From: Isurus oxyrinchus
Lineage: Eukaryota
NCBI GenBank assembly: GCA_026770705.1
Contig: JANJGN010000026.1
Span: 32,798,001-32,862,000, forward strand
Direction: 5' to 3'
Length of the DNA: 64,000 nt
The translations under genes and the position numbers were made by a program. The number at the start of each line of letters is the position of its first letter. The stretch's first letter is position 1. This document shows positions 23,075-33,582 of this stretch, piece after piece. A model generated the notes under the pieces. That model was not told the origin of the DNA. It saw nothing but the letters and a program-made list of their open reading frames with translations, and searched no databases.

Positions 23075-23591
23075 CTCCGTGCTCTGTATCACTGTGTGTC
23101 TGTAATCCCTCCATGTTCAGGTTTTTGTTCAGCTCCTTCCTTGCTCAGTATCACTATGTCTGTAATCCCTTCATGTTCAGGTTTTTGTTCAGCTCTCCGC
23201 GTGCTCTGTATCACTGTGTGTTTGTAATCCCACCATATTCAGGTTTTTGTACAGCTCTCTCCGTGCTCTGTTTCACTGTGTGTCTGCAATCCCACCATGT
23301 TCAGGTTTTTGTACAGCTCTTTCCGTGCTCTGTATCACTGTGCGTCTGTAATACCACGATGTTCATGGCTTTTGTAGAGCTTTCTCCGTGCTCTGTATCA
23401 CTGTGTGTCTGTAATCCCACCATGTTCATGTTTATGTGCAGCTCTCTCCGTGCTCTGTATCACTGTGTTTCTGTAATCCCACCATGTTCAGGTTTTTGTA
23501 CAGCTCTCTCCCTGCTCTCTATCACTGTCTGTCTGTAATCAAACCATGTTCAGGTTTTTGTACAGCTTTCTCCGTGCTCTGTATCACTGTG
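23075..23591 (-). repeat. Tandem array of ~62-bp units, each containing a 23-RSS (9 heptamers, 8 complete RSS)
   Basis: Unit on - strand: CACAGTG-ATACAGAGCACGGAGAGAGCTGT-ACAAAAACC-TGAACATGGTGGGATTACAGACA. Heptamers start at + coordinates 23090, 23152, 23212, 23274, 23336, 23399, 23461, 23523, 23585. Confidence 0.95.
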
Positions 23592-23889
23592 CTGTGCGGC
23601 GACTCAGTGCACAGTAATACACTGCGGAGTCATTCAGTTGTAGTTTGAAGATCTTTAACCGCTCGACTTTCTCGGCAGGGTCGATAGAAGCAGAAATTCT
23701 CCCCCCAGCAACTTGTTTTTATTCTCCTCTCCTGAAATGTGTCTCTGAAGCAGATATTCCGGAGCCTGTCCGGGGGACTGACGGTACCAGTGTACTGTGT
23801 ACTGCCAGAACCCTGAATATTCACAGCTTAAAGTAAATGTGTCACCGGCAGCAGAGATTTGTACAGGCGAATTCCGGGAAACTACGGAA
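23592..23889 (-). pseudogene. NAR-TCR supporting V-delta (leaderless), frameshifted
   Basis: VSRNSPVQISAAGDTFTLSCEYSGFWQYTVHWYRQSPGQAPEYLLQRHISGEENKN/fs/VAGGRISASIDPAEKVERLKIFKLQLNDSAVYYCALSRRT. Acceptor AG at 23890-91, or in frame at 23882-83. No leader recognised between it and the J. Perfect RSS 23553-23591. Confidence 0.9.
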
Positions 23890-24499
23890 CTGGAATCGGG
23901 AGGATTAAAAAAAATGAAAATTATCGTTTTGCTTAACCACTGTTTGTCCAGTTGAATTCAATCGCGTGAATAGCTCTGCTTTTTGCAGTAATTTTATTTG
24001 CTGGAAGCTTGTTTGAACGGTGTTCACTGTTATTGAACTATGATCAAGTGGGAAATGAGGTGATAATTTATTTTACATGGCGAACACTTCCGATCAGGAC
24101 TTCACTATATGAATTGGTGTTGGGAACAGATTCCATCGTAACTTTCAAACGGGAATTTCTCTCTGCCTTTTGCTCTATTTCTCTATGTTCTATCAACAGG
24201 GTCCTATTTTCTCCGGTTCAGCTTAAGTTCAAATGTGTACAATTAATTTCATTTTATTTCTTTAATTTCACATTCCCTGTAGTTCACATGTTTTTCTGCT
24301 GTTTACGCTTTTTGCAATTGTGGGAACTTATCCCAAAGTCTCTCAGTTGTTGGTTAGGCTCAGTCTGTTCAGTTTCTGTTTTTGGTTTTGGTGTTACTCA
24401 CTGTGAACTGCCTCTTTCGGCTCTCTGACAATTTCAATTCCTTCCGCCCATTGGTTGATTCTCTCCCGGGTTCACTGGGTGGAGCTTTCTCTTCGTTTT

Positions 24500-25500
24500 C
24501 CATTATGTAGGAAGAAGAATGCGGAAGAGAAATGGGCCATCCGACCTGCGTACATACTCAATTCCAACCTGACCCAACCGGAATAACTGACCATTTCCAT
24601 CCAGCTCCCTGTGTCGTCTGTTCCGTTCTCCCACCTGTATTTTCAATTGTTCCAAAAATATATCAATACTATCTCCAACCTCTCCTTGTGGCAGCAAGTT
24701 CCACATTCTGACAGCCTTTGTTTAAATTCATCTGTCTTAAATGTTTTATTTGTTCTGTTAATAACTGTCATATGTTGACAGCTATTGCTTTGGACTCAGC
24801 CACAAATGAACAATTTTCCACACTGAAACCGTTCATTCTTGAAAATATTTCTATAGATTCTCCTCGTGGTTCTGTTTTCCAGAAAAAAGAGACCCAGCCT
24901 GTTCATTCTTCCCAGAGAGATGTGGATTGTTGCTGATTTCTTTCCTCAGGAGTGTAAGACATAAAAGCAGAGAATTCAATCGATAGAAGCAGGAGCTGCC
25001 GCATCGCCTTTCAAAGCTGCTCAGCCATTCAGTAAAATCCTGGCTGACTTACAACCTCAACGACACATTCCCGCGTTCTCGCCATATCGCTGATCCTTTT
25101 AGTGCCCGAAAGCCAATCGAATATTGTCTTGCACAGACACAGATACCGAATACCCACAAAATGAATGCCACAGATTCACAACAATGGTTCTACTGAAGAT
25201 ATTTTTCTTCCTCAGTTCTAATGGATGACTCTTTATTTTGAAGCTGTGACCCTGAGTTCTATACTGCTCAGTCTGGGGAGACACCGACCCAGAATCTGCC
25301 CTGTCAAAGCTCTTTAGAATATTACATGTTTTCATGAGATCACCTCTCATTCTTCTAAACCCGACGAAATATAGACCGAGACGACTCAATCTCGTCCTAT
25401 TGGACAATCCCTTCATCTCAGGAATCAGTCTAATGAACCTTTATTGCACTCCTTCCAATGCGGATTGATCTCTCTTCTGCAAGGAAACCAAAACTTTACA
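24500..25500 (-). mobile_element. CR1 LINE fragments in the J to V-delta intron
   Basis: RLSRLGLYFVGFRRMRGDLMKT...VVNLW and WNLLPQ translations. Confidence 0.7.
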
Positions 25501-26417
25501 CAGCATTCCGGACTGGAGTCCACTTCAGCCCTTCCCTCCATAAAACTCAATCGACACCCTGGGGTCGGATTGGACTTTGAAAGGCGCCCAGAAATCATCC
25601 AATCCTTCTCTCACTTTCGATTAATTATTTCTTGCTGTTTCTAAATGAACATTCCCCCAGTTTATAATTGTTCCCTTTTGTTCTTGTTCTCCTGTATGAG
25701 ATTAATGCATATCCTCCATCTCTCATTGTTTTAATTCACAGTAATCAGAGATACAGATAAATTACAGCAATACCGTCTCTCAAATATCAGGACTCAAAAT
25801 AGAGAAATGCTGCATTTCCAAACTTCCGCATTTATGTCTGAGGACGGAAAAGGAGGAAAGTGATTGGTTATATGAAATAACTTGAAATAAATGGCGGGGA
25901 CAATGTCACTAATTTCAGTCACTGATTGTCCAATAATAATATTCCATGTGGGCCCATATCAGGATCTCATATATCGAAATCCGATGCATAATGTTCCTGC
26001 TTTTCTTCCGGGTCAGGTATTGAACTGGCCGCTGCAGGTTTCCGAACTGGCCGCAGTTGTGTTGAGTTTATTCACCTGGTGCTTCATTCACATTGCGCGG
26101 CTCGGACTACAATATGCTGCCCAGGAGAGAGCTCTGTGACCCCGTTCCCGGGCTCTAAGGGACAGACAGAGCTCCCTCAGTCACCGTTAACACCGGTGGT
26201 GAAGTCCAAATTGGCGACAATCTACGCTCATTAAAAGCGATTCAGAGTGTGAGAGTCCGTGAAGTTGTTAGTGTCCCCGATGTGTCTGTTAAGCAAATAA
26301 TGGATCAAAGTCCGTCAACTCCCACATCCCACCCAATCTCCACTGATATCAATAATAAACTGACGGGGAACATTACCCGGGACAGTCAGTAACCCAGCGG
26401 GGTTTGGAGTCACTTAC

Positions 26418-26469
26418 CGGCTGTGGCAGTCACCATCGTCCCGGGTCCATCCACATCTTTATAACTCAC
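26418..26469 (-). other. NAR-TCR J segment
   Basis: VSYKDVDGPGTMVTATA+G (GxG motif), donor GTAAGT. 5' RSS (read on +) CACAGTA-23-ACAACAGTC at 26470-26508. Confidence 0.85.
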
Positions 26470-26851
26470 CACAGTAACACCGCTCTCAGTCTCCCCGGTA
26501 CAACAGTCACGGACACTTCAACCTGCTGGGAACTCAGCATCCGACAGTAGAAACTTCCCAATTATTCAGCGGATTTAAATAACTAAACAATATTCAATGT
26601 TTCGAAGTATCTGTCGGTTCAAACTATTGTTTGTGAGGCCCTGAGCTCTGAGTAAATGATCCCAGGAACGAGATGTTCGCTTCATATAAACCGAGGAAAA
26701 TATCAAAGAAAGAGAACTGAATGGTGGAAATTACAATGAAATGTAGCCAGGTTCCAGCGATAAAAACATCAACCCGGCAATTCACTATCTGGGCCCGGAG
26801 AATTTATATTGTGATCGTAGAGAGGTATTTGCTTCGGTCTCTCCCATTGTG

Positions 26852-26869
26852 AACTGCCCCATCCACCCA
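26852..26869 (-). other. NAR-TCR D segment flanked by 12-RSSs
   Basis: TGGGTGGATGGGGCAGTT. 3' RSS CACAATG-12-GCAAATACC (26824-26851). 5' RSS CAGAGTG-12-ACAAAATCC (26870-26897, heptamer damaged). Confidence 0.85.
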
Positions 26870-27212
26870 CAGAGTGTTACAAGTCAATACAAAATCCCCC
26901 GGGCACTTGGTGAGATTTGGGGACGTTAGTTAAACATCGGGGACTGCGGTTCCCAGTTCCAGCTGTTAGGCCAGGATCACATCTGGTGTTAAGGGTTTGT
27001 AACTGCGATCAGTCATTCCCAATCCCATTCATTGACAGGAATCACGGGAAAGGCATCACCATTCGCACACATTCGGCATTTATAAAGCTCAAGATGTTAA
27101 CGGCTATAATCCAATCTCGTTATAAAATAGACTGTGCGGCAGACGGTGTGAGGCGGAACTGTGGGGGTTTAACCCCGTTTTTTTATTTGTATCTGTGATA
27201 ATCTGCAGTGCG

Positions 27213-27250
27213 AGTTTTTGTATCGCGGGAAGCCGAAGCCGGTCATTGTG
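27213..27250 (-). promoter_or_regulatory. RSS of NAR-TCR V (22-bp spacer)
   Basis: CACAATG - 22 nt - ACAAAAACT. Confidence 0.9.
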
Positions 27251-27507
27251 TGTATCTGTACGCAGCTTTACTGTAATAGTTGGCGGTGTCTTCAACTCTC
27301 ACATCCCGAATCTTACTTTATTCACCGACACAACAAATCTAACCCCGCTGGAGAACCGCTCTCCCTATGCCCCGGTGTGGGTTTGTCTGAAGAAATGTCC
27401 CCTTTGCAAGTAATGCCGCGAATTGAAAACACAGGTGATGGTGAGAGACTGACACTCCTTCTTGGTCACCGCTGCCGGGATTTGTGTCACTGATTGATTG
27501 AAGAAGC
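27251..27507 (-). pseudogene. NAR-TCR V (IgNAR-like V domain) pseudogene
   Basis: GFFNQSVTQIPAAVTKKECQSLTITCVFNSRHYLQRGHFFRQTHTGA*GERFSSGVRFVVSVNK/deletion/KIRDVRVEDTANYYSKAAYRY. Has the extra FR1 Cys, a short CDR2 region, a stop codon and YYC->YYS. Confidence 0.88.
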
Positions 27508-27645
27508 CTGGAAATTAAACAGAGAGAGTTTAATGGAACGAACCAGAGAACAGGGTTAAACGCCAGACAGTGTCTGTAATTAGGATGGACTCGGGCAGCT
27601 TTATATTAAATCCACACAATGTCGGTTTGTTTGATCGGTACTCGC

Positions 27646-27687
27646 GGGGTAAAAGACACACAGGGTGAAAACAAGCAGGATTCCCAT
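27646..27687 (-). pseudogene. Leader exon of NAR-TCR V
   Basis: MGILLVFTLCVFYP, damaged donor GCGAGT. TATAAA about 25-30 bp upstream and octamer-like GTGCAAAT at 27806-27813. Confidence 0.8.
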
Positions 27688-29909
27688 CGTTCTGCTGCCT
27701 GGAGCGGAGGGTTTATATGACGGCGAGCTGGAGACTGCAGCTCTGGACCGCACTGGGTGAGCGGACCTCAAAGCTGGACTGAAATACTTCAGGGGGATCG
27801 AGTTAATTTGCACAGAGCCGTTCCGCTGAGATCATTGATGGGCCGCACGGTTCCCGGGTCGCTGTCTAAGTGTTGTGTGAATAAGAGACAGATTTATAAA
27901 AGGAGGCTGCAATTTTCTGACTCTTCGTTTGGATTGTGGTCCGGATGTGAAAGCTCCTCCCACAATATTCTGGTGTTCAGCGGTGGGGGAGGGGAGCTTT
28001 TCTTTCTGCCAGTTCTGCTGCCGCCTTCCTTTCGCTACAGTAATAAACTGGGAGGTAGGTGCATGTGTTTGTATTCGGTGTTTTTTTTGACGATGGAACG
28101 TGGGCCCAGGGCACCGAGCGAATTCCCCGGTCCTGCTCCTGTTCCAATATTCCGGAGATTGATTAACATCGCTCTAAACAGGCTGATGGGACCTCAGTTA
28201 TTCTTCTGATCTGAAGGTCGGCGCCTCAGACCCGGCATCTTCGCTGCCTCAGCAATTGGGGGCCAGGTTGCAATATGGGGGAGCCCAGTGACATTACCAA
28301 TATCCTGGCAGATCTGCACACCATGCACATAAACTAATTAGGAGCTGATTAGCTCAGTTAGCTGGATTGCCAACAGCACGGGTTCCATTCGTGTCCTGGC
28401 TGAGGTATGCCTGGAACTTGTCTGCTCCTGCGATTGGAAGGCAGTGGCAAACCACCACAAACCATGCTACCAAGAAAACAGCTCAAGACGAAGAAGCCAC
28501 AGAAAATCTTCCAAGGACCTGCCCTCGTGCAACGCACAACTGAATAAATAACAAGAACCAATTCTCCCTGACATTTAGTAAAATGCTTCCCGCACCACCT
28601 CTGCGGTAGGGTATATGTATAATGGTGTTTAAGTTCAAGCTTGCTTATTTCCAGGTTGGGAATATTGAAAACTTCCGTTTGCAGGGACACAGAATGAAAC
28701 GATATTCGGAAGGGCAATCGACATTGGGGGAACCCCGTGCTTGTCGGTTGCTTTAAAGTTCACAGTCACTAACTTCTGTTCTGCAATATCTTACCCAGCA
28801 ACAGCAACACTCGACTGAAGAAACCCCGTGACAAGGCGGAGGTCAAAGGCCTCAAAAACTGACAGCGGAGTTCGCATGCTCAACATTGTGGGCAGTCACC
28901 GAAAGGTCATTAAAGGAAGAAACGGAAAGTAAGAACGGAAGCACGTCACACAAGCATGGCCGCTGATTGGGCCTGCAGTCGGTAAATTCACTTTTTGTAC
29001 ACGTCCAGCCAATTGGTGATAAGTTTTTAAATGTAACTAAAGAATGTTGCGTTGAAAATAATAATGTGTAAAACACGTTTTAAATAAACGTATAAATGTG
29101 TCGTACAGTTATAAACGTATGCAGTATAAATAGGGAATTAATCTAAACAGCATTAACAAAGGCATGGCCTGGTGTAATATAAATAGAGACAGCGTCTATT
29201 TCAGTAATCACTGAGGCAAAGCCTGGAGTAAAATGACTAGAGATAGCGTGGAGCTTAACGTAAACAGGGGTTTCATTTAGAGTGGTCAGATCAACGATAG
29301 GAACTATTGAAATCTAACCAGAGTCACGGGAAGTGCGAAATTAATTCAGATATGTCCCAGAATAATATAAACAAAGACATGGCCTTGTCTAATGTGCACT
29401 AAGATATAGACGATTTTAGTATAGTCTGAGTGCTGACCTGGCGCAATGTCAGCATATGCATGGCCTCGTCTAATGTAATTTAAATCATGTACAATGCAGT
29501 GTAACATAGAAATAGCCTAGTGCAACATAAACCGTTACAGAGCCTAGTATATCAATAATTGAGACAGGGCTAACGTAATGCAAGGAAAAATATGTCTACC
29601 ACCATAAGAAATAAGCTAGGGCCTCATGTCCTGTAAACAGAGGCACCGGCTATTGTACTATGAAGGGTCACTTTGTCCATTGTAAAATGAAAAGAGATGT
29701 AGTCTATTACAAATAACTGAAAAGTGACTCATGCAGCACCAACTGAGATGCAGTACAGTGTAGTTCGATTGAGAGACTGTCTAGTGTGATATACAGATAA
29801 GCATAAATAGTGTAGTGAGTAATAGCAAAAATAAGGTTAATATAGTATAAATAGAGGCATATCTTATGTAGTAGCAGGTGAGAAATCGTCTGCTAGAACA
29901 GTTCAGTGA

Positions 29910-33357: not shown

Positions 33358-33582
33358 NNNNNNNNNNNNNNNNNNNNNNNNNNNNNNNNNNNNNNNNNNN
33401 NNNNNNNNNNNNNNNNNNNNNNNNNNNNNNNNNNNNNNNNNNNNNNNNNNNNNNNNNNNNNNNNNNNNNNNNNNNNNNNNNNNNNNNNNNNNNNNNNNNN
33501 NNNNNNNNNNNNNNNNNNNNNNNNNNNNNNNNNNNNNNNNNNNNNNNNNNNNNNNNNNNNNNNNNNNNNNNNNNNNNNNNNN
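33358..33582. other. Assembly gap (225 N)
   Basis: Run of N. Confidence 1.

Follow-up and report, generated by a model that had tools for sequence, protein, structure and literature searches.

A decayed NAR-TCR cassette of Isurus oxyrinchus and its sister cassettes with germline-joined V-D-J exons

We analyse a stretch of 64,000 nucleotides of DNA from the shark Isurus oxyrinchus (assembly GCA_026770705.1, contig JANJGN010000026.1, hereafter C26, positions 32,798,001 to 32,862,000), referred to as the window, and consider a cassette on its minus strand that has the anatomy of NAR-TCR, a T-cell receptor (TCR) of the delta type in which a NAR-type V domain stands on a supporting V domain. With high confidence we regard the window copy as a NAR-TCR pseudogene that is derived from a member of this cassette family. 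Taken alone, the window copy is an ordinary dead unit of a known receptor type and matters little, and the interest lies in its paralogs with pre-joined exons, where V, D and J are already fused in the germline. We give an even chance to the proposal that these sister cassettes encode TCR-delta chains of three to five V domains, with the joined NAR domains stacked upon one another.

NAR-TCR of cartilaginous fish was reportedly described by Criscitiello in 2006. In the established model, rearrangement takes place twice, and the spliced chain has its NAR domain, which is unpaired, on top of a supporting V (PMC3457774, PMC6795676, PMC5931798, PMC12227049).

The window cassette and its decay

Read on the minus strand from 27719 to 23553, the cassette consists of a TATA-like box, a leader, a V, one D, a J, an intron of about 2.5 kb and a second V, with the recombination signal sequences (RSS) listed in Table 1, where the consensus applied is the generally known one. 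A preliminary description of the window, made from the letters alone, had put a leader, an IgNAR-like V, a single D, a J with its splice donor and a leaderless V with 23-RSS in this order on this strand, and every part is located where it said; its word "complete" holds for the list of parts and fails for the function, as the copy is predicted to give no protein. The order and spacing are repeated in dozens of paralogs, whose RSS types match too, and a 20-nt framework pattern gives 113 exact matches versus 0 for the reversed control, so that the pattern of the window cassette is not due to chance. The sole N stretch of the window (33358-33582) lies far from the cassette.

Table 1. Features of the window cassette with their lesions, and the other V-like segments of the window, which lie on both strands overall (FR2, framework region 2; CDR1, complementarity-determining region 1)
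Feature	Position in window	Strand	Remarks
TATA-like box	27719-27710	-
Leader exon of NAR-type V	27646..27687	-	42 nt vs 43 (1-nt deletion); donor GT>GC
NAR-type V exon	27251..27507	-	a-b-loop Cys present, FR2 Trp absent; in-frame TAG at 27367-27365; deletion of 19 nt near 27314; TGT>AGT in the second Cys codon, 27272-27270 (YYC>YYS)
V RSS	27213..27250	-	heptamer 27250, 22-nt spacer, nonamer 27221; heptamer 1 base off consensus
D 5' 12-RSS	26870..26897	-	heptamer third base broken, CAC>CAG
Single D segment	26852..26869	-	18 nt, flanked by two 12-RSS
D 3' 12-RSS	26824..26851	-
J 23-RSS	26470..26508	-	nonamer weaker than in paralogs
NAR-type J	26418..26469	-	open; phase-1 GT donor intact at 26417
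Leaderless supporting V	23592..23896	-	acceptor AG>CG at 23898-23897; CDR1 Cys>Trp at 23807-23805 (one base change); 1-nt deletion near 23717
Supporting-V 23-RSS	23553..23591	-	perfect consensus
Tandem array	23075..23591	-	8.4 units of 62 bp, one 23-RSS copy per unit
V-like segment	7747-7965
V-like segment	11081-11227
V-like segment	37947-38138
V-like segment	43718-44055
V-like segment	45825-46076
V-like segment	51072-51395
V-like segment	54422-54745
V-like segment	61296-61660
V-like segment	62777-62992

By alignment to intact paralogs, at least eight separate lesions are called. Those that had been claimed in the leader, the NAR-like V, the 5' RSS of the D and the supporting V are all real; the loss of the splice acceptor and the change of the CDR1 cysteine (Cys) to tryptophan (Trp) in the supporting V are added here, and the weakened J nonamer and the tandem RSS array were likewise absent from the preliminary description. 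Its view of a decayed copy is borne out by these lesions and by a twin cassette 5.7 Mb away (G000:C26:38.535-38.540 Mb), which has 97.9-98.2% identity across 9.9 kb and carries the lesions of the window copy plus one private lesion. Since the twin has the same lesions, the window copy would have died first and been duplicated afterwards. That the lesions are assembly errors in a functional cassette might be suggested by two of them being 1-nt deletions beside short base runs, and we reject it as scarcely credible because most of them are substitutions or a 19-nt deletion and because the separately placed, about 2% divergent twin has the identical set.

From the stop, the frameshifts and the lost acceptor, no receptor chain is predicted for the window copy, which would fail at the NAR-type V and its leader, at the D signal, and at the supporting V together with its acceptor; as the CDR1 Cys is lost, we class the copy as a pseudogene that descends from a member and not as a member in working order. 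What the supporting V retains is a perfect 23-RSS with seven RSS-like copies behind it, and this intact signal could still be cut by RAG, giving a non-productive allele only. These signals, and the many near-identical paralogs close by, would suit a retained role of the dead copy as a gene-conversion donor or, by means of its RSS array, as a decoy for RAG. We consider such a role quite unlikely, since RSS arrays are a family trait, with at least two copies (two to nine) behind 53 of the 73 supporting Vs, so that selection on the window copy is not needed. Note also that the first heptamer of the 62-bp array is an in-frame stop, so that the use of a distal RSS copy would be non-productive, and that the read-through tails of two carpet shark gene models (P0035 and P0047) resemble the same 62-bp repeat.

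Assignment to NAR-TCR

The NAR-TCR interpretation of the preliminary description is supported. When the window V is read through its stop and compared with PDB, the 23 best of 30 matches are shark VNAR and none of the 30 is an antibody heavy-chain V (VH), so that the contrary outcome which the description had named, best matches to IgM or IgW, is not what is found. The V of NAR-TCR is marked by a Cys in the a-b loop and by the absence of the Trp of the WYRK motif (PMC1845163). The window V has the motifs KEC, which holds the a-b-loop Cys, and FFRQ, with no FR2 Trp, and in the open paralog Vs the a-b-loop Cys is present in 60/60 and the FR2 Trp in 0/60. In the supporting Vs the CDR1 Cys is found in 70 of the 72 full-length ones (68/73 by pattern and two more by eye, with one truncated), being replaced by Trp only in the window copy and its twin. 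Moreover, the V at 23592-23889 had been described as leaderless, and the leader scan gives 0 candidates for a leader-like exon in the 2524-nt intron between the J and the supporting V, so that a hidden leader of the supporting V is rejected; in the controls, the scan returned 56/60 leaders of NAR Vs, 2/5 leaders of other Vs of the window and 2/73 hits upstream of supporting Vs.

The assignment also agrees with gene models from other species. The window V is 62% identical over 76 amino acids to a basking shark gene model and the supporting V 78% over two pieces, and in the gene models of at least seven species of sharks and rays the two V families to which they belong are joined by splicing. 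The supporting V would also have a lawful partner. A TCR constant exon lies at G000:C26:29,902,426 on the minus strand, in a D-J-C block at C26:29.929-29.900 Mb where it is preceded by one D with 12/23 signals and by four J segments that have the FGxGT motif and a 12-RSS; since this block shares the orientation of the window cassette and lies 2.9 Mb downstream of it, the 23-RSS of the supporting V can find its partner there.

Some points weigh against the assignment. No protein named NAR-TCR appeared in the two homologue searches; membership is argued from the anatomy, from hallmarks taken at second hand and from unnamed gene models; and the constant exon owes its label of delta to the D that precedes it and to its similarity to gene models, with no named delta chain among them. 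The PDB matches of the supporting V and of a conventional V are mostly multi-domain antibody constructs, which are uninformative on class.

An IgNAR cluster has three D segments, with the constant exons behind the J. If the cassette were an orphan IgNAR or an IgM/IgW cluster lying beside an unrelated TCR V, the likeness of its V to VNAR, with the best PDB matches, the short FR2-CDR2 region and the 22-nt V spacer, would be expected. Against this, here there is a single D, a V exon and not constant exons follows the J, the a-b-loop Cys is present and the FR2 Trp is absent throughout the open paralogs, in almost every cassette examined the J is followed by a V of one and the same leaderless family, and other sharks' gene models splice the two Vs together; we therefore reject the orphan cluster as very improbable.

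Compared with NAR-TCR as described (PMC1845163, PMC3457774, PMC6795676, PMC12227049), the cassette is alike in its leader-bearing IgNAR-like V with the a-b-loop Cys and no FR2 Trp, in its own D and J, in its leaderless supporting V with 23-RSS and in the linkage to a TCR D-J-C block. It is unlike in that the window copy is broken in every coding part except the J and has lost the CDR1 Cys, and in that the family here is very large and includes sisters with a germline V-D fusion or with one to three extra joined exons.

The cassette family and its integrity

Among 100 of the 113 pattern matches listed, at least 53 are NAR-type V exons on C26, between 23.1 and 39.2 Mb; such a number over 16 Mb would make NAR-TCR a major part of this shark's T-cell repertoire potential. 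About 1.2 Mb around the top matches was examined, a set chosen by similarity and not a random sample, of which the first 0.98 Mb was annotated and some 13 further cassettes were mapped only. The test of integrity covered the D heptamers, the reading frames, which had to be open, and the splice sites, which had to be canonical, the strength of the V and J signals lying outside the test. The count of intact cassettes elsewhere on the scaffold, which the preliminary description had asked for, comes to 23 passing among the 37 complete annotated cassettes of C26, one passing V having a poor heptamer. The pass rate is 8/16 for plain V-D-J-V cassettes, the window's type, 8/12 for those with a germline-fused V-D, 3/5 and 2/2 for those with one joined exon, and 2/2 for those with three. 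In six of the eight passing fused V-D cassettes there is a stop at the fused end, so that trimming must remove it.

At the fused loci (L039-L048, L082, L096 and L097), the germline V-D fusion is followed directly by a 12-RSS and then by a J that is not joined. Three or more different junctions occur among them, one class having an in-frame stop just before the heptamer. In several broken NAR Vs (L014, L060, L062, L064, L079, L128 and L131), an expansion of the G-run is seen at the SSGG codons between FR2 and FR3, which is either a recurrent mutation spot or a weakness of the assembly.

Sister cassettes with germline-joined exons

Nine of the 37 cassettes have one or three exons in which V, D and J are fused and which are free of RSS, placed after the rearranging J and before the supporting V. 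In all, 25 joined exons were collected, 14 of them on C26. Nineteen are open, with lengths of 336-348 nt and phase 1-1, and all 25 have both an AG acceptor, which is the same as the normal V acceptor, and a GT donor. The PDB matches of one joined paralog exon are VNAR-like. The a-b-loop Cys is present in 25/25, and so is a Cys at a fixed position of CDR3. By contrast with this upkeep of the exons, a leader passing the test is kept by only 2 of the 25, with the C26 counterpart of these being borderline, and the other leaders have lost the ATG, have a stop at codon 4 or a weak donor, or are absent altogether.

Of the joined exons that stand behind an intact leader and V, 19/20 are open, and of those behind a broken one 0/4, but these four share one stop. 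For 11 open joined exons of C26, the ratio of replacement to silent substitution rates (dN/dS) is below 1 (0.16-0.97) in all 54 differing pairs, which are not independent of one another. Among the seven distinct open joined exons, 36 silent and 48 replacement changes are counted where the expected silent share is 0.28 (p = 0.003), and among four joined exons that share a dead leader, 17 silent and 16 replacement changes (p = 0.004); this count left out the broken exons (one stop event and one frameshift event) and has no gene-conversion term. Under neutrality, the flanks predict about 10 lesions in the joined exons. Judging from these substitution patterns, the open joined exons are under purifying selection.

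A tree built from 65 V regions has a branch (86/81) with all ten distinct joined exons on one side, and joining is a single change in 99% of the bootstrap trees, the bootstrap being not settled. On the same side fall three white shark model domains and one basking shark model domain with the same junction residues, and one white shark model (XP_041031384.1) has two joined domains in a row and then the supporting V. In the proposal of stacked chains, the joined exon would have arisen once, in lamniform sharks, and then have lost its leader.

Several loci can be pointed out. Two cassettes, at G000:C26:38769354-38750340 (-; L031/L070/L092) and G000:C26:37914957-37894870 (-; L024/L068/L093), each have a rearranging V-D-J, three open joined exons and an open supporting V, so that splicing in all of them would give as many as five V domains; contigs C151 and C210 carry near-copies of the two cassettes. 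Three others, at G000:C26:31164869 (-), 30061949 (-) and 35936104 (+) (L013, L026 and L036), have one open joined exon each, with the stop at codon 4 in its own leader. A Heterodontus francisci model (P0004, XP_067869961.1) has a J-like start, two NAR domains and then the supporting V; its NAR domains share one identical junction and lack the CDR3 Cys, and it is either a stacked cassette of independent origin or an artefact of the modelling.

Stacked chain or borrowed leader

In the stacked chain that we propose at even chance, a rearranged NAR domain would stand atop one or three invariant joined NAR domains, and these atop the supporting V. The tiers would be locked by disulfides, with the a-b-loop Cys of one tier bonding to the fixed CDR3 Cys of the next or, at the bottom, to the CDR1 Cys of the supporting V. 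The joined exon would then serve as a spacer that can be stacked, raising the antigen-binding domain above the T-cell surface.

The other reading is that the joined exon borrows the upstream leader and becomes the fixed top domain of a two-V chain, with no stacking, which we hold to be possible and somewhat doubtful. In the newt Pleurodeles waltl, a pre-joined leaderless V appears to use the leader of its neighbour (PMC12698447). This precedent and two further observations lean weakly towards borrowing: in a white shark model (XP_041031398.1), the joined exon directly follows a leader that resembles the first one, and a low-depth contig from a related organism matches the 5' end of the joined exon with 1 difference in 121 letters. 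This contig runs on for 111 letters which, by depth arithmetic, lie off the upstream J and off the ends of the joined exon. On the other side, after V-D-J joining the J donor faces a joined-exon acceptor identical to the normal V acceptor; in the triple cassettes a borrowed leader would still run through three joined exons unless some are skipped; and the fixed CDR3 Cys, present in every joined exon, has no partner inside its own domain. It should be noted that stacking and leader borrowing are not mutually exclusive uses.

Four putative RNA runs contained 0.06-0.13 of the words; when they were compared with a one-joined-exon cassette, intronic repeats dominated, and no exon-exon joint appeared among the 15 of 66 joints listed. 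Among the contigs of the related organism, five pieces end within 2 bases of the joined-exon acceptor, one of them being unspliced germline, and one piece ends exactly at the donor.

Proposed pathway and comparison with known systems

Following the established NAR-TCR model, we infer that in the intact sisters RAG would join V, D and J inside the cassette and also the supporting V to the distant D and J, and splicing would give leader, NAR VDJ, supporting VDJ and C in this order, with the a-b-loop Cys of the NAR domain bonded to the CDR1 Cys of the supporting V. The cassette family would have grown by segmental duplication, in a birth-and-death manner.

The paralogs with joined exons resemble marsupial TCR-mu, where a rearranging N-terminal V is also followed by an invariant germline-joined V exon; in TCR-mu the V is related to VH, the joined exon takes the place of the supporting V, the chain has two V domains and the joined exon is thought to be retroposed (PMC3457774). 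By contrast, the joined exons here are NAR-type, keep remains of leader and intron, and precede a separate supporting V that still rearranges through its RSS. The joined-exon paralogs thus fail as members of TCR-mu and at most work like it. In the germline-joined TRD V-J of Pleurodeles waltl there is likewise a pre-joined, leaderless TCR-delta V exon, while that chain has a single V, takes a neighbour's leader and has been shown to be expressed (PMC12698447).

The longest TCR chains described are those of NAR-TCR and TCR-mu, each with two V domains. If the stacked chain is true, chains of three to five V domains would exceed this two-V limit, and a germline-joined internal V would be known from a TCR for the second time, independently of the first. 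In the titles, abstracts and passages covered, from which four key papers are absent, no description of germline-joined NAR-TCR exons or of a shark TCR with three V domains was found.

Neighbouring segments and a second constant exon

Outside the cassette, no fewer than eight V-like segments are seen in the window, and several of them carry a 23-RSS. Leaders can be recognised for the segments near 43.7 kb and near 54.4 kb, the former segment being without its first Cys. About 2-6 kb before the window start, on the opposite strand, another NAR-TCR cassette is present (L121, G000:C26:32791801-32796280, +), whose supporting V is seemingly truncated.

Finally, we note that there are two differing constant exons of the TCR-delta type, one on the unplaced contig C242 (L111, C242:616924, +) and the one on C26 mentioned above (L112, C26:29902426, -), which are about 84-92% alike in DNA. 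As C242 has this constant exon and its own row of NAR-TCR cassettes, it may hold a second D-J-C block.

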